A DNA stretch of 64,000 nt from NCBI GenBank assembly GCA_964426735.1, contig CAYRRP010000003.1, positions 77,378-141,377 on the forward strand, in the 5' to 3' direction. Within the stretch, counting starts at the first letter, position 1. Every line of letters starts with the position of its first letter. Of the stretch, positions 2,182 through 39,018 are shown one piece after another. Position numbers and translations under genes: made by a program. This stretch comes from an uncultured Candidatus Saccharibacteria bacterium. Lineage in GTDB: Bacteria; Patescibacteriota; Minisyncoccia; Phycocordibacterales; DATDWN01. The notes below the pieces were generated by a model. It made no database searches. It had not been told where the DNA came from and worked only from the letters and a program-made list of their open reading frames with translations.

Positions 2182-2607
2182 TTATTTTTTAGCTGCTCCA
2201 CCTTTAGCTTTCTTAGCACCGTATCGACTTCGAGATTTACCTCGTTTGTCTACACCAGTCGCATCGAGTACACCTCGAACGATCTGATATCGAAGTCCTA
2301 CGTCTTTTACCTTTCCACCTCGGAGCATTACCACTGAGTGTTCCTGAAGTGTGTGACCCATACCTGGGATGTACGCAGTAACTTCCATACCGTTTGAAAG
2401 TCTTACTCGGGCAATCTTTCGAATCGCTGAGTTAGGCTTCTTTGGAGTCTTTGTGGTTACTTTTGTACAAACCCCTCGTTTAAAAGGTGATGAATAAAAA
2501 ATAGGTCGGTTCTTAAGTACGTTAAAACCGCGAGTAAGCGCAACAGAGCGCACTTTTCGCTTTACGTTTGAACGGCTTTTCTTTACTAATTGATTTATCG
2601 TTGACAT
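2182..2607 (-). CDS. rpsL: 30S ribosomal protein S12
   Basis: 141 aa, with [19 protein letters not shown]...[21 protein letters not shown], the S12 signature. Confidence 0.97.
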
Positions 2608-2695
2608 TGACCGTTATCCTAATACATTTGTACTAATATTGCAAGCTGTGTGCTTCTGGTACGTCCATATTTGACGAACTCCTTTATTGGACTGC

Positions 2696-2741
2696 AAAAA
2701 ATAATTTCCACCGTACAACGAGTACGTCTACAATTATTTTT
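2696..2741. repeat. Short member of the imperfect-palindrome intergenic element family
   Basis: AAAAATAATT..CCGTAC-AACGA-GTACG..AATTATTTTT. It has 10-bp outer arms and a GTAC apex with the same AACGA loop as the element at 46215-46320. Confidence 0.5.
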
Positions 2742-2796
2742 CTGGTCCGCCTCGGATTTCAATCAAATCTGAACATCCTCCGAGTTAAACTTATAC

Positions 2797-2843
2797 AAAA
2801 AAAGCCTTGTGCAGGAGGGAGCAAAGCTCCCTCCCACAACAAG
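2797..2843 (-). terminator. Intrinsic terminator downstream of the M50 protease gene
   Basis: Perfect 9-bp stem GGAGGGAGC-aaa-GCTCCCTCC (2813-2834), extended by CTTGTG/CACAAG. It is followed by T7 on the minus strand. Confidence 0.7.
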
Positions 2844-2915
2844 ACATCGATTTTTTCCGACCTTTAAGGGTCAGGCCTCCCGCAATCGTAGTTAGGAGGC
2901 TATTATAACATACAT

Positions 2916-2974
2916 AACCGAAGAACCGAAGAACCGAAGAACCGAAGAACCGAAGAACCGAAGAACCGATGAAC
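2916..2974. repeat. Tandem 8-bp repeat (AACCGAAG), 6 exact copies plus a degenerate seventh
   Basis: Direct reading: aaccgaag repeated from 2916 and ending aaccgatgaac. It produces the spurious ORF 2791..2979 (FGSSVLRFFGSSVLRF). Confidence 0.95.
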
Positions 2975-3050
2975 TGCACAGTGCAGACTGAGAGCTTCAG
3001 ATGAAGCTTTCTGCAAAGAATAGTACACCCCCCTCAAAATTTGTCAAGTG

Positions 3051-3671
3051 CTACATCCCTACTCCAGTAATCATCTTAAAAAAGAAACTTACCACCGGGG
3101 AAAGGAACTGAGACAAGAAAAACACAAAGAAAATGAGGATTGTGATACTGTAAGCTTCCATAGTAGTTCTGATATGTGCCATGTTGTAAGGCAAAAAGGC
3201 AAAAAGTATCTTTGATCCATCAAGTGGTGGGATAGGTACCAGGTTAAAACACGCAAGAACAAGGTTAATTATCGTGATAGTAGCTGATATATGAATAAAA
3301 TCACTCGATAGCGTCAAAATGCCAGTAGATGCAAGTCGGATAATAAGCCCGAAAAACACTGCAATACATATATTAATGAATGGCCCCGCAAAAGCGACAA
3401 TAGCTTCGCCCCATTTTTGATTCCTCAAGTTATAGGGATTAAACGGCACAGGCTTTGCCCAGCCGATGATGAATCCCCCAAGCTGATATGACAAGAATGG
3501 GAGAATCACAGACCCAAACCACTCTAAATGCTTAAGTGGATTGAGAGTGAGGCGTCCCTGGAAGCGAGCTGTATTGTCCCCTTGCAGATACGCTGCATAC
3601 CCATGAGCTACTTCATGGGCAACCACTGAAAACATTAGTATAAGTAATGAAAAGATAAAATCGATTTGCAT
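3051..3671 (-). CDS. Site-2 protease family (peptidase M50) membrane metalloprotease
   Basis: 206 aa and polytopic. It carries HEVAHG (HExxH) in the first TM region and NLVPIPPLDGSK (NxxPxxxLDG) later. Confidence 0.85.
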   Translation of the reverse strand: MQIDFIFSLLILMFSVVAHEVAHGYAAYLQGDNTARFQGRLTLNPLKHLEWFGSVILPFLSYQLGGFIIGWAKPVPFNPYNLRNQKWGEAIVAFAGPFINICIAVFFGLIIRLASTGILTLSSDFIHISATITIINLVLACFNLVPIPPLDGSKILFAFLPYNMAHIRTTMEAYSITILIFFVFFLSQFLSPVVSFFFKMITGVGM

Positions 3672-33153: not shown

Positions 33154-33301
33154 TGGTGCGGGTGGGGAGAATCGGTCACGAGTAATTCTGGTTCCGTCGA
33201 ACCAGAATTCTCTCGACCCCGACTCGCGACCCACTCTGGTGAGCGGGTGCCCCCGCTCCGTCTTTCGATTCCCCATGCAAAGCTCTGCTTTGCTCACCCG
33301 C
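33154..33301 (-). ncRNA. tRNA-flanking structured element, copy R4 (unknown family), with tRNA-Gly-like acceptor ends and an encoded CCA
   Basis: 5' GCGGGUG and 3' CACCCGCA-CCA pair like the neighbouring tRNA-Gly acceptor stem. The interior is homologous to 37390-37496 and 37148-37275, with covarying hairpins. Confidence 0.6.
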
Positions 33302-33353
33302 ACACATATCAAAAAACCGGCATAAAACCGGTTTTTTGATATGTGTGCGGGTG
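33295..33353. repeat. 26-bp perfect inverted repeat joining the tRNA-Gly 3' end to element R4
   Basis: CACCCGCACACATATCAAAAAACCGG (33295-33320), a 7-nt loop, then the exact reverse complement (33328-33353). The inner part is an A6CCGG/CCGGT6 terminator-like hairpin. Confidence 0.95.
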
Positions 33354-33416
33354 GGGAGAATCGAACTCCCGTATACTGCTTGGAAGGCAGTCATTCTACC
33401 ACTAAATTACACCCGC
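33346..33416 (-). tRNA. tRNA-Gly (anticodon UCC)
   Basis: GCGGGTGTAATTTAGTGGTAGAATGACTGCCTTCCAAGCAGTATACGGGAGTTCGATTCTCCCCACCCGCA. This is a 71-nt cloverleaf with anticodon loop CTTCCAA. Confidence 0.95.
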
Positions 33417-36153: not shown

Positions 36154-36226
36154 CGGGGTGTGGTGTAACGGCTAACATGCTTGATTTGGGATCAAGTGAC
36201 TCCGGGTTCGAATCCCGGCACCCCGA
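36154..36226 (+). tRNA. tRNA-Pro (anticodon UGG)
   Basis: CGGGGTG...CTTGATTTGGGATCAAG...CCGGGTTCGAATCCCGGCACCCCGA. This is a 73-nt cloverleaf. Confidence 0.93.
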
Positions 36227-36247
36227 CAATAGATTTTCTAAATACAC

Positions 36248-36673
36248 CTAAAGTATTATATCTTCCAGCATCTTTACCCTACATACTCGTTTTTCTTGAT
36301 CCACATACACCGTAGCTACATCAAACTGCCACTCCGTATCATCTGAGACATTTTTATCAAGCAAATACGACTGTATAGTCCGAGCAAGCCTCTGGAGTTT
36401 CCATGGGTGCATATTATCCTCTGGCCGATACCTATTATTCGTTTCACGTGGCACATCTTCAAACTTTCTCGATACACTCTTCACCTCAACAAAGTGAATT
36501 TTTTTGTCCTTTATAGCTACCACATCCAATTCTCCCCACTTTTTTAAATAGTTACGATCAGTCACCTTAAAACCTTTTCTCTTAAGATACGTACACACCG
36601 CTTCTTCCCCAATTGCACCCAATATCTGTTTTTGGGTTTTAGTATGAACCTTCAATGCAGCTTTTTCTCTCAT
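36248..36673 (-). CDS. YraN-family (UPF0102) endonuclease-like protein
   Basis: GEEAVCTYLKRKGFKVTDRNY...GELDVVA...HFVEVKS. The start is set at ATG 36673 (TATACT lies 8 nt upstream). Confidence 0.8.
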   Translation of the reverse strand: MREKAALKVHTKTQKQILGAIGEEAVCTYLKRKGFKVTDRNYLKKWGELDVVAIKDKKIHFVEVKSVSRKFEDVPRETNNRYRPEDNMHPWKLQRLARTIQSYLLDKNVSDDTEWQFDVATVYVDQEKRVCRVKMLEDIIL

Positions 36674-36713
36674 ACATATATAGTATACAAGCTTAATCCT
36701 TTCACGTGTAACT

Positions 36714-36745
36714 ATATTATATGTTACATATGTAACATATAATAT
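36714..36745. repeat. 32-bp perfect AT-rich palindrome
   Basis: ATATTATATGTTACAT|ATGTAACATATAATAT, verified base by base. It lies upstream of the yraN-like gene. Confidence 0.95.
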
Positions 36746-36870
36746 TTGAGTAGGTACAGGAGGATTCGTAGTATAAAGTACACAATTTCCTTTGTATAAA
36801 GCCATTTTTGGAGACTTTTGGACACAAAGTCTTATACTTTGAAGCCTGTCAAAGACTGTCTCTAATACAC

Positions 36871-37027: not shown

Positions 37028-37101
37028 GCACCCGTAGCTCAATTGGATAGAGTATTTGTCTTCGGAACAAAGGGTTGCAGGTTCGAGTCCTGCCGGGTGC
37101 A
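37028..37101 (+). tRNA. tRNA-Arg (anticodon UCG)
   Basis: GCACCCGTAGCTCAATTGGATAGAGT...TTTGTCTTCGGAACAAA...GCAGGTTCGAGTCCTGCCGGGTGCA, 74 nt. A TTGGCA-16-TATGAT promoter lies upstream, and an A6TCCCAA/TTGGGAT6 terminator lies downstream. Confidence 0.95.
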
Positions 37102-37147
37102 CACGACAAAAAATCCCAACTGCTTGGGATTTTTTGCTACGTGTGCA

Positions 37148-37275
37148 CAACGGAGACATGTTTTTTCAGCAGAAAAAAAGGTCGAGTTGTGGACCGAAGG
37201 AAATTTCAATTCGACGGAATTGAAATTATCCGAAGTGTACAAGACAAAACCCTATGTATTTGAATTTCTCCCCAC
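37148..37275 (+). ncRNA. tRNA-flanking structured element, copy R6 (AT-shifted paralog)
   Basis: CGGAG (37151-37155). P3 is TTTTTTC[AGCA]GAAAAAA (37161-37178). GGTCGAG (37180-37186). P4 is AAATTTCAATTC[GACG]GAATTGAAATT (37201-37227). The tail is ATTTCTCCCCAC (37264-37275). Confidence 0.5.
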
Positions 37276-37296: not shown

Positions 37297-37367
37297 GCGG
37301 CTATGGTTTAGTGGTAGAACACGTCCTTGCCAAGGATGAGATTCGGGTTCGATTCCCGGTAGCCGCA
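37297..37367 (+). tRNA. tRNA-Gly (anticodon GCC)
   Basis: GCGGCTATGGTTTAGTGGTAGAACACGTCCTTGCCAAGGATGAGATTCGGGTTCGATTCCCGGTAGCCGCA, 71 nt. Confidence 0.95.
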
Positions 37368-37389
37368 CAGAAAAATCGGAGATTTTTAT

Positions 37390-37496
37390 CCGGGAATCGA
37401 AAGCCGGAGCGAGGGTTCCCGTCAGCAGACGGGACCGCGAGGCCGGGTCGGGAAATTTTACGAGTGGCGACGAGTAAAATATTCCTGACCGATTCC
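37390..37496 (+). ncRNA. tRNA-flanking structured element, copy R5
   Basis: CCGGGAATCGAAAGCCGGAGCGAGGG..CCCGTC[AGCA]GACGGG..GCGAGGCCGGGTCGGG..TTTTACGAGT[GGCG]ACGAGTAAAA..GACCGATTCC. The closing helix is GGAATCG/CGATTCC. Confidence 0.6.
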
Positions 37497-37545
37497 AGTG
37501 CCCATACTCATAAATAAGGCCTCCAAAAGCCTTAAAATCACTCAT

Positions 37546-39018
37546 ATGAATACAAACTTCACTATCCCTGTCGAAGTGTCACGTGTAACACAAACCCTCG
37601 AAAATGCCGGTTTTGAGGCTTTTTTGGTTGGTGGATGTGTACGAGATCTTATCCTCAACAAAAAACCAAAAGATTGGGATGTTACTACCAACGCAACACC
37701 TGAGCAAATCATTGCTTTGTTTCCACATACCTTTTACGAAAACAACTTTGGAACAGTTGGTGTTGTTTCAGATGAAACAGAAGATGACACTCTTAAAACT
37801 ATTGAAGTTACGCCATACCGTCTTGAATCAGAGTATTCTGACAATCGACGCCCAGACGCTGTTACTTTTTCACAAAATCTCACAGATGACTTAAGGCGAC
37901 GCGACTTCACCATTAACGCCCTTGCATACTCAGTATCTAAAGGACAACTCACTGATGTCTTTAATGGACAAGCTGATATTTCTGCTCAAACTATACAAAC
38001 AGTAGGGAATGCGGTCGAAAGACTCACTGAAGATGCCCTTCGTATCATGCGAGCAGTGCGGTTTCATGTGGAACTTGGCTTTATCCTTTCACGTGAAACG
38101 GAAAAAGCGGTACTTGAACACGGTCATTTACTACAAAACATCTCAAAGGAACGCATTCGTGACGAATTTACAAAGATTATTATGTCTCCGCAGCCAATGA
38201 ATGGCTTACTCATGCTGAAAAAGCTGAATTTACTTCAGTATATTGTACCAGAACTGGAAAAAACTATTGGGGTAGAGCAGAACCGGGCACATTCATACGA
38301 TGTATGGGAACATTTACTTCGAAGCCTCCAGACTGCAGCAGATAAGAACTGGCCTCTTGATATTAGACTTACCGCTTTATTTCACGATATTTCAAAACCT
38401 GAGACACGTCGATGGGGAAAAGAGCAGAATACGTGGACATTTTACGGTCATGAAGTAGTTGGTTCACGTGTAACACGGAAAATACTTACTGATTTGCGAT
38501 ATCCGAATAAACTAATTGATAAAGTGGTGACAATGGTGCGATGGCATATGTTTTTTTCTGACACAGAACAGATAAGCCTCTCTGCGGTCCGTAGAATGAT
38601 CGTAAATGTTGGACGAGAGAATATCTGGGATTTGATGAATGTACGCATCTGCGACCGTGTAGGAACTGGTAGACCCAAAGAAGATCCGTACCGCCTCCGC
38701 AAATACCATGCAATGATAGAGGAGGCTCTTCGTGACCCGATTACTGTAGGAATGTTGAAAATAGATGGTAAACGTTTAATCGATGTTACACAGGGAACAC
38801 CTGGTCCTAAAATAGGGTATACACTTCATGCATTACTCGAAGAGGTACTCGAAGATCCAACTAAAAACACTGTGGAATATTTAGAAAAACGCTCTGTTGA
38901 GCTCTATACTATGGATGAGATCGAATTAAAAAAGCTCGGTGAACAAGGTAAACAAACGAAAGAAGAAATAGATCAGCAGGAAATCTCAAAAATTCGTAAA
39001 GGACACAAAGTAAAGTAG
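37546..39018 (+). CDS. cca: CCA-adding enzyme / tRNA nucleotidyltransferase with HD domain
   Basis: GGCVRDLIL...DWDV, RRDFTINA, and an HD region (LFHDISKP). The start is set at ATG 37546 (TAAAAT lies 7 nt upstream). Confidence 0.9.
   Translation: MNTNFTIPVEVSRVTQTLENAGFEAFLVGGCVRDLILNKKPKDWDVTTNATPEQIIALFPHTFYENNFGTVGVVSDETEDDTLKTIEVTPYRLESEYSDNRRPDAVTFSQNLTDDLRRRDFTINALAYSVSKGQLTDVFNGQADISAQTIQTVGNAVERLTEDALRIMRAVRFHVELGFILSRETEKAVLEHGHLLQNISKERIRDEFTKIIMSPQPMNGLLMLKKLNLLQYIVPELEKTIGVEQNRAHSYDVWEHLLRSLQTAADKNWPLDIRLTALFHDISKPETRRWGKEQNTWTFYGHEVVGSRVTRKILTDLRYPNKLIDKVVTMVRWHMFFSDTEQISLSAVRRMIVNVGRENIWDLMNVRICDRVGTGRPKEDPYRLRKYHAMIEEALRDPITVGMLKIDGKRLIDVTQGTPGPKIGYTLHALLEEVLEDPTKNTVEYLEKRSVELYTMDEIELKKLGEQGKQTKEEIDQQEISKIRKGHKVK

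Follow-up and report, generated by a model that had tools for sequence, protein, structure and literature searches.

A structured RNA module enclosed by antisense and sense copies of the tRNA 3' end follows tRNA and tmRNA genes across the Patescibacteria

Why should the 3' end of one tRNA gene stand three times side by side in a bacterial genome? This question is raised by a 64,000-nucleotide stretch of DNA from an uncultured Candidatus Saccharibacteria bacterium (assembly GCA_964426735.1, contig CAYRRP010000003.1, positions 77,378 to 141,377 of the forward strand), which we analysed as a whole and refer to as the window, and in which all coordinates are counted unless a locus is named. The original prediction for this DNA had described an intact tRNA-Gly(UCC) gene, a perfect 26-bp inverted copy of its end and a 19-nt direct copy, and had proposed that the region is either the scar of an integrase or the source of a tRNA-like minihelix RNA, termed R4, on the minus strand. 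All three copies are present exactly where it had placed them. We read them as the tRNA itself and the antisense and sense anchors of a single module, and it is close to certain that R4 belongs to a real and widespread family of structured RNAs, whose conserved unit is an inner three-way junction with its closing helix, P1, and not the minihelix.

The tRNA-Gly(UCC) gene is intact and lies on the minus strand at 33345-33416, where it was reported by ARAGORN and scores 73.7 bits with the Rfam tRNA model, and both repeats derive from its positions C56-A73 (33363-33346). The direct repeat is the 19-mer GTGCGGGTGGGGAGAATCG, which spans the T-loop to the acceptor 3' strand and occurs exactly at 33156-33174 and 33345-33363, with ~170 nt between the two occurrences; its 15-nt core is exact at only these two sites in the 64 kb, a third site requiring 3 mismatches. 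On the minus strand the downstream copy reads ...CGATTCTCCCCACCCGCA-CCA, the CCA occupying 33156-33154, whereas the tRNA gene continues ...GCA-CACATA and thus encodes no CCA, an asymmetry that had been pointed out before and that the sequence confirms. The inverted repeat pairs 33295-33320 with 33328-33353 (26 nt, 100% complementary, 7-nt loop), forming a perfect 59-nt palindrome at 33295-33353 on the minus strand. Its first arm (33353-33328) consists of the last 8 nt of the tRNA followed by an 18-nt trailer, its loop lies at 33327-33321, and its second arm (33320-33295) closes with an antisense copy of the acceptor 3' strand, GCGGGUG (33295-33301, minus strand), which is identical to the tRNA 5' acceptor strand. 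Judged from sequence and predicted folds, this heptamer has two possible partners, the 3' end of the tRNA itself and the downstream copy. The centre of the palindrome resembles a terminator (A-tract/CCGG/U-tract), and a consensus terminator scan made no terminator call on it.

The 149-nt minus-strand R4 RNA has a predicted folding energy of -81.6 kcal/mol (z = -7.65), with 0/200 shuffled sequences as stable, and its DNA is 61% GC in a neighbourhood of 26-42% GC. Relatives of the locus, traced through the downstream glutamine-amidotransferase gene, showed no conserved synteny. In one of them, locus L007, an R4-related sequence follows a different gene, tRNA-Thr(CGU), and ends in a 29-nt copy of the 3' end of that tRNA; R4 and L007 have the blocks GAATCGAAAG, GGGGTCGAG and CGTGACCGATTC in common. 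An exact 26-base pattern, searched over contigs representing one genome per species, matched at least 119 genome stretches, nearly all of them Patescibacteria by their labels, and a covariance model of the family, R1, gave 134 matches in 100 loci and 36 in 26 more, including many more diverged copies. R4 itself scores 92.8 bits with this model over 33163-33277. It also shares the further features by which we propose to define the family, namely a P1 helix made of antisense and sense copies of the tRNA and a placement on the same strand at most 150 nt downstream of that tRNA.

The labelled hosts include Saccharibacteria, Paceibacteria/Parcubacteria, Kaiser-, Nomura-, Yonath-, Taylor-, Wolfe-, Campbell-, Morani- and Berkelbacteria, and WWE3. 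Among the matches listed there were also three Elusimicrobia metagenome-assembled genomes (MAGs) and two contigs that are probably mis-binned. The labels outside Patescibacteria are those of L064, L092 and L112 (the Elusimicrobia MAGs, whose three contigs are high in GC and look genuine), of L089 ('Gammaproteobacteria') and of L104 ('Bdellovibrionales'), the last being 99% identical to a Moraniibacteria copy and hence probably mis-binned. Viral contigs gave 0 matches to the strict pattern, and the 2 matches that they gave to a relaxed pattern appeared on inspection to be chance or incomplete and were not recognised by the model; the GenBank phage and plasmid collections held no family match.

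Placement is strikingly uniform. In 96 of 111 evaluable copies a tRNA or transfer-messenger RNA (tmRNA) gene on the same strand ends at most 150 nt upstream, and in none is that gene on the opposite strand. The usual distance from tRNA to pattern is about 19-85 nt, and R4 falls within this range, its pattern starting 73 nt past tRNA-Gly(UCC). The modules measure ~80-130 nt. A model match lies downstream of 124 of the 195 tRNA and tmRNA genes in the family loci that we fetched, the occupied genes amounting to ~38 anticodons and 5/5 of the tmRNAs detected (tmRNA confirmed by Rfam), and a single 8-kb locus can hold up to 5 copies. Three orphan copies were considered as candidates for autonomous elements: that of L074 lacks its tRNA because an open reading frame (ORF) for an IS3-type DDE transposase, assigned by sequence motifs (L074 positions 2317-3075, minus strand), separates it from the upstream region where the tRNA would be expected; the ORFs upstream of the L119 copy include no mobilising enzyme; and the copy in L039 was assessed by sequence inspection only.

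The window itself holds two further copies, so that three of its four tRNA genes carry the element, tRNA-Pro(UGG) at 36154-36227 being without one. A search with GGGGTCGAG and CGTGACCGATTC at fixed spacing found W2, a second intact member at 37388-37501 on the plus strand, behind tRNA-Gly(GCC) (37297-37368), which matches the pattern and scores 81.2 bits with R1. A short hairpin at ~37370-37390 precedes it, and its 5' strand, CCGGGAAUCG (37391-37400), matches 10 nt of tRNA-Gly(GCC). W2 carries a copy of neither the 5' acceptor strand nor the acceptor 3' strand; its tail has decayed to 7 nt and it has no acceptor-like closure. The third copy, W3, lies at 37140-37243 on the plus strand behind tRNA-Arg(UCG) (37028-37102) and is decayed, scoring 14.7 bits with R1 when the filters are off (E = 7e-4 in 421 nt); both of its hairpins are recognisable and P1 and P3 are lost. 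A palindrome at ~37097-37148 precedes W3 and again takes in the tRNA 3' end.

An alignment of 120 distinct copies defines the structure that these elements share. The consensus is a three-way junction closed by P1 (GGGAAUCG / CGAUUCCC) of 8-9 bp, with an AAA junction strand, a P2 helix (G-N-C / G-N'-C) that leads through a GGA/GA internal loop to a variable hairpin A, and a P3 helix (GGUCG... / ...UGACC) bearing a variable hairpin B with a bulged A. Pairing is maintained in 93.4% of the cells of the alignment, compared with 74% in column shuffles (0/500 of which reach the observed value) and 29-50% when the partners are slid, and the covariation score is 0.515 versus 0.155. The central pair of P2, for example, is AU in 39 sequences, CG in 39, GC in 30 and UA in 6. 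Moreover, one stem position is G-U in 39 sequences and A-C in none, indicating that folding takes place in the tRNA-sense strand, whether this is RNA or single-stranded DNA. Just outside the junction, a hairpin of the P0 type ends at most 4 nt from P1 in 79 of the 120 members, frequently with a CUGC or CUUC loop.

R4 can be laid out on this consensus along the minus strand. Directly 5' of P1 lies its P0 hairpin, GCAAAGC-AGA-GCUUUGC (33277-33293), predicted by folding and kept in L121, L069 and L060. The 5' strand of P1, GGGGAAUCG (33266-33274), is identified by the fold and the family alignment and is antisense to tRNA positions 56-64. There follows the element-specific interior (33175-33265), delimited by the covariance model, the consensus structure, covariation and compensatory changes relative to L121 and L069, which comprises the AAA junction strand (33265-33263), P2 (GAC/GUC, 33262-33260 with 33223-33221) and its GGA/GA internal loop, the hairpin-A domain (33255-33227), and P3 with hairpin B and its bulged A (33218-33174, the final base being common to the tail). 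The P1 3' strand and tail (33154-33174) end the module with the sense copy of tRNA C56-A73 (33174-33157) and then CCA (33156-33154). The minimum-energy fold of R4 draws a hairpin GAGCGGG/CCCGCUC that differs from the conserved one; comparison with orthologues supports ACCCGCUC-ACCA-GAGUGGGU (33248-33229) as the hairpin of R4.

The outer strands of the module follow the tRNA and not the family. A neighbouring T-loop TTCGAATCC goes with the P1 strands GGGATTCG.../...CGAATCCC, a T-loop TTCAAGTCC with GGACTTG.../...CAAGTCC, and TTCGAGCCC behaves likewise. In the same way the T-loop TTCGAATCCC is accompanied by the element 5' and 3' strands GGGATTCGAAAG and GACCGAATCCC, TTCAAGTCC by AGGACTTGAAAG and GACCAAGTCC, and TTCGAGCCCGCC by GCGGGCTCGAAAG and GACCGAGCCCGCC. 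This change of P1 with the tRNA implies that P1 is an antisense and a sense copy of the neighbouring tRNA from C56 onwards, and that the interior alone is specific to the element. The direct repeat begins at C56 in all copies. Its length peaks at 19-21 nt and is at least 18 nt in 56 of 93 copies, with an overall range of 6 to at least 34 nt by exact match and up to ~85 nt by inspection; the few repeats of 26 to ~85 nt take in trailer and spacer, the longest being those of L064 (~57 nt) and L089 (~85 nt).

Beyond P1 these anchors appear free to decay. In 52 of 93 copies the tail matches its own tRNA exactly as far as the discriminator, in 30 of the 93 it deviates at most 4 nt beyond CGATTC, and in 27 of the 93 the 5' strand adds fewer than 3 pairs; the outer segments of the two anchors decay about equally fast and show no compensating changes. 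Where tails have drifted, the 5' strand still matches the tRNA over its own tail, by 23 cases to 3. A CCA is encoded in 14 of 52 copies versus 7 of 52 tRNA genes, a weak enrichment, with 8 cases of CCA in the copy but not in its tRNA gene and 1 of the reverse. Most copies, like most tRNA genes, run on with CA after the discriminator; this dinucleotide (as CAA, CAT, CAC or CAG) stands in 37 of the 52 tRNA genes and looks like a conserved partial 3' end. Retro-copying from mature tRNA was rejected as the origin of the anchors, the CCA excess being weak and repeats that reach into the trailer being inexplicable from a mature template.

The anchors are not tied to a single interior. A second, unrelated core type has the same antisense and sense anchors behind other tRNAs, with the layout ...CGAAG-CC-YGAUUG-hairpin-CAAUUG-GGRUACUG-[stem-UGUAA-stem]-tail, in which the bracketed stem is 5-bp and covarying. 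It was found at L043:1640-1790, at L060:5400-5600 (minus strand), in L036, L042 and L045 and in others, and is absent from the 64-kb window. A third, simpler core lies at L054:4650-4740.

With the family in hand, the proposed minihelix can be judged. It would be a stand-alone tRNA-like RNA serving as substrate or decoy for RNase P, the CCA-adding enzyme or glycyl-tRNA synthetase, and the part of the claim that concerns R4 alone stands: in the predicted fold a 7-bp acceptor-like stem stacks on the extended T-type helix GGGGAAUCG/CGAUUCUCC, that is on P1, and ends in a 3' ACCA, just as had been drawn. A similar closure with an encoded CCA occurs in a tandem array at L054, and the 8-to-1 bias of CCA towards the copies points the same way. 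An exact upstream copy of the tRNA 5' acceptor strand, which closes such a stem, is present in 16 of 85 mid-spacer copies (32 of 85 when up to one mismatch is accepted), far above the ~0.4% expected by our estimate; where it is present, the post-tRNA hairpin grows, as in R4, into a palindrome that reaches back over the tRNA 3' end. The pairing is not, however, a property of the family. Only 1 of 17 short-spacer copies has it, most members lack the closure, W2 among them, and it is lost in L121, the nearest relative that we found. Furthermore, many of the host tRNAs belong to synthetases that read the anticodon (Trp, Arg, Leu, Glu), and neither ARAGORN nor Rfam detects a tRNA or tmRNA in R4. 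A minihelix function is therefore unlikely, and we see the minihelix of R4 as arising incidentally in a young or renewed copy; it does not define the family.

The tmRNA tRNA-like domain, mascRNA and viral tRNA-like structures resemble R4 and a minority of its relatives in the 7-bp acceptor-like stem on a T-stem-like helix and in the NCCA end. The modules differ from all of these in that a three-way junction replaces the T-loop, that they have no analogue of the D and anticodon arms and no tag reading frame, that the closure is not conserved in the family, and that the sequence is copied from the adjacent tRNA instead of having evolved independently.

Several known classes of RNA were considered for R4 and set aside. 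As a canonical tRNA or pseudogene it finds no place among the four true tRNAs that ARAGORN, run as had been suggested with its tmRNA mode, reports in the window, and the Rfam tRNA match in the region is limited to 33346-33416 even at E up to 10. As a tmRNA it fails likewise: ARAGORN found none in the window, and the tmRNA_permuted match reaches 18.7 bits, against a gathering threshold of 47, and lies on the palindrome. All 4227 families of Rfam 15 at gathering threshold returned nothing but tRNA in the window; the R4 region at E up to 10 gave just tRNA and chance microRNA-type matches on the palindrome, and 18 family loci gave just tRNA and tmRNA. Self-cleaving ribozymes (hammerhead, twister, pistol, hatchet, hepatitis delta virus-like) are disfavoured by the lack of any Rfam match, and the hammerhead core is, on inspection, incompatible with the junction strands (AAA / G / none). 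Nor do junction and loop sequences fit, again on inspection, a kink-turn, the hairpin ribozyme, 5S, signal recognition particle or 6S RNA, a retron or an integron attC site. A group I intron was rejected since the neighbouring tRNA is intact and the module, of 80-130 nt, lies beyond it and matches no Rfam intron; published tRNA group I introns of Patescibacteria sit in the anticodon loop, at position 35/36 (PMC13011429). No nuclease ORF lies next to the module in the window or among 86 downstream neighbour ORFs of family loci, which speaks against a guide RNA of TnpB, IscB or Cas12, and no RVT domain occurs among the downstream neighbours, which speaks against a retron non-coding RNA.

Could the direct repeats nevertheless be what is left of an integration? 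Under this reading they would be the attL and attR attachment sites of an element that entered at the tRNA T-loop and was mostly deleted. The geometry of the repeats, from the T-loop to the tRNA 3' end or slightly beyond, is that with which integrases of the T-loop class use tRNA and tmRNA genes, and integrative elements offer further likenesses: an intact tRNA upstream, a displaced downstream copy that decays, the use of tmRNA genes and tandem arrays. What lies between the repeats argues otherwise. The intervening ~170 nt, which had been taken for the remnant between att sites ~190 bp apart, hold a conserved RNA that recurs behind ~38 anticodon species and tmRNA, and the ~100 nt beside the repeat form a covarying structure with more than 150 copies, one core family standing behind dozens of tRNAs. 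An antisense copy that tracks the T-loop of each tRNA is not made by att recombination, no integrase or cargo lies nearby, no larger integrated element or integrase was seen in related loci, and the transposase next to the L074 orphan accounts for that orphan. A search of metagenomes for the R4 site in an empty state gave 0 matches, in a collection from which this organism is absent. We consider a plain integrase scar highly improbable.

How, then, does the same core come to stand behind so many tRNAs? Comparisons within genomes point to exchange. In one MAG (SRP192927_co3_354) a 98%-identical core follows tRNA-Lys(UUU) (an array at L054:4240-4760) and tmRNA (L120:7490-7680), each with locus-specific flanks; the array contains two identical tandem cores and a third, different core within one acceptor-like stem, and terminates in a copy of the tRNA-Lys acceptor with an encoded CCA. 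In the complete Kaiserbacteria chromosome CP066682.1, two tRNA-Glu isoacceptor genes with different bodies (L027:3500-3900 and L126:1250-1650) share a block of ~98% identity that runs from the T-stem through spacer and core to just past the tail, apparently, to judge by the sequences, a gene conversion of the 3' part of the tRNA together with its element. Core identity averages 0.71 within a genome compared with 0.60 between genomes, and when each core is matched to its closest counterpart from another genome, the two stand behind the same tRNA species in just 16 of 108 cases versus 6.3 expected. The spacer between tRNA-Arg(UCG) and tRNA-Gly(GCC) ranges from 4 to 203 nt among genomes, indicating that the element is polymorphic for presence and absence. 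Together, these observations indicate that recombination exchanges and homogenises both the cores and the [T-arm ... tail] blocks, with gain and loss.

The comparison with L121 adds a view of one locus over time. Identity between the window and L121 is 96% over the tRNA, the palindrome, the antisense acceptor copy and P0, whereas it is 83% over the core and 58-71% over the flanks. L121 retains palindrome and core, and an additional partial core interrupts its acceptor 3' copy. The 26-bp palindrome is perfect in both sequences by way of a paired A/T swap in both arms, which implies either selection on the hairpin or templated correction of the palindrome. The R4 core differs from those of L121 and L069 by compensatory changes.

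We therefore favour, as the probable explanation, a repeated RNA cassette that is anchored on tRNA 3' ends, evolves in concert, and has flanks that are templated or renewed from the tRNA and can be dispensed with beyond P1. The cassette would persist by recombination among tRNA 3' regions, which swaps and homogenises the core and the [T-arm ... tail] block; its tRNA-derived flanks would be templated at birth or renewed by conversion and would decay outside the 8-9 bp required for P1. The module would be transcribed together with its tRNA or by read-through from it, the simplest assumption given the same strand, the short distance and the presence of just a small hairpin between the two in short-spacer copies. 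Repetitive extragenic palindromic (REP) sequences and bacterial interspersed mosaic elements, Correia repeats and repeats like miniature inverted-repeat transposable elements (MITEs) share with this family the many structured intergenic copies, the homogenisation within a genome and the decayed members. They differ from it in that the modules are placed strictly behind same-strand tRNA and tmRNA genes, carry terminal inverted segments copied from each neighbouring tRNA, have neither fixed terminal repeats nor a fixed-length target duplication, and come with no known mobilising enzyme.

Several observations weigh against such a cassette. Recombination among existing copies leaves the first colonisation of a new tRNA unexplained, and the 86 downstream neighbour ORFs of family loci include no mobilising protein, with no integrase, transposase or reverse transcriptase domain among them. 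Cores of the same genome are mostly well diverged, their structure being kept by compensatory changes, and orthologous copies behind tRNA-Gly(UCC) persist across lineages; diverged cores that stay structured and orthologues that persist favour a host function over a purely selfish repeat. Palindrome and P0 exceed both flanks and core in conservation between the window and L121, which fits poorly with flanks that are neutral by-products. In addition, the seed set for the alignment came from the strict pattern, so that some invariant positions are invariant by construction; in copies that the model found and that fail the strict pattern, those positions are strongly, not absolutely, conserved.

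Part of this evidence fits a second explanation, in which the module serves its host as a cis-acting trailer. Co-transcribed with the tRNA, it would act as a three-segment switch that couples folding or 3' processing of the tRNA to cleavage, termination or decay, for example through a long double-stranded RNA for RNase III or through RNase P or Z acting on the tRNA-like end. Its fixed position, always on the strand of the tRNA, the compensatory changes that keep the structure in orthologous copies, the 96% conservation of palindrome and P0 with its compensated swap, the terminator-like hairpins that follow many copies, and the retention of the family in very small genomes across the whole radiation all agree with a trailer. 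So does the minimum-energy fold of the tRNA-R4 co-transcript, in which the tRNA 3' half pairs with the antisense segments and the 5' acceptor strand with the tail, an alternative to a cloverleaf next to a folded module. The three segments (tRNA 3' half, antisense copy, sense copy) may thus permit two mutually exclusive pairings, and the RNA could act on its tRNA or report its folding and processing; the same logic could just as well have arisen incidentally, through templated repeat formation and palindrome correction. Three-segment attenuators and riboswitch platforms work on this principle, the antisense segment 2 pairing exclusively with segment 1 or with segment 3. In the modules, unlike attenuators, segment 1 lies inside a mature functional RNA and not in a leader, and no regulated downstream gene is evident. 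A trailer is possible and remains the less likely account, as the module stands behind just a fraction of tRNA genes and its presence differs among relatives, copies such as W3 have decayed, at least two unrelated core types use the same anchors, and the same core is exchanged between unrelated loci.

The conversion-like copying of [T-arm ... tail] between genes, on which the cassette explanation draws, also suggests a guide-like RNA. The core would then be the scaffold bound by a nuclease, recombinase or transposase encoded elsewhere and the tRNA-derived strands its guides, and the enzyme would cut or recombine tRNA genes at T54-T55|C56, copying the cassette by homing. By analogy, a scaffold followed by ~18-21 nt identical to the adjacent target recalls the layout of TnpB and Cas12 guides, and the sense and antisense target segments recall IS110 bridge RNAs; in TnpB omega RNAs and IS110 bridge RNAs, as in the modules, a structured scaffold carries segments that match or complement the flanking DNA. 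The universal G53-T54-T55 always precedes the target, and the repeat always starts at C56. Yet no such protein gene lies beside any copy examined, the would-be guide is base-paired in P1 so that the guide-like strands pair with each other, many tails have decayed behind intact cores, and neither sequence similarity nor an Rfam guide-RNA family links the modules to these systems. We regard a guide-like RNA as very unlikely.

We rate the family as lying outside the known kinds of element. It is conceivable, if rather doubtful, that it is something altogether new. It could be a tRNA-templated element, a small RNA cassette that would home to tRNA and tmRNA genes of any kind at the T-loop or 3' end; the antisense and sense copies of the target would serve it as guides or as handles for recombination, and it would work either as a ribozyme or through an RNA-guided enzyme in trans. 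Just as novel would be an RNA device, common to the whole radiation, that governs how tRNA 3' ends mature or are quality-checked in bacteria without much of the usual RNase repertoire.

The genes around the copies are varied. Those flanking R4 are, by the Pfam annotation of homologs, a GATase and a trypsin-like protease, and two related metagenome contigs break off ~100 nt short of the GATase gene, on its upstream side (L003:1-100 and L007:1-103), consistent with assemblies breaking at the repeated tRNA-element sequence. A UPF0102 (YraN-like) gene at 36248-36805 on the minus strand adjoins the tRNA-Pro, tRNA-Arg and tRNA-Gly cluster of the window and recurs in 6 of the 86 downstream neighbour ORFs, a recurrence that probably reflects conserved synteny and not a functional link. 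The ORF directly 3' of W2 (37498-39018, plus strand) is, by sequence motifs, a candidate CCA-adding enzyme or poly(A) polymerase with an HD domain, whose position beside W2 is probably a coincidence; a PolyA_pol domain match also fell on one ORF among the 86 scanned neighbours.

Several practical consequences follow for the reading of these genomes. Displaced tRNA 3' fragments, some with an encoded CCA, could mislead the annotation of tRNAs and att sites, and the repeats and long palindromes may break assemblies. The covariance model of the family can also be used directly in annotation and in experiments on cultivable Saccharibacteria.

We found no description of tRNA-anchored modules of this kind in the literature, our search extending to papers outside subscription access, and to our knowledge no other RNA has a closing helix made of antisense and sense copies of the neighbouring tRNA from T-loop to 3' end. 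Patescibacteria account for a large part of bacterial diversity; their genomes are tiny and streamlined, and nonetheless this structured module, of ~100-250 nt, follows a large fraction of the tRNA genes in them, and tmRNA as well. A module that serves its host would point to an unrecognised layer of tRNA maturation or surveillance; a selfish one would represent a new way to colonise tRNA genes without an encoded enzyme.

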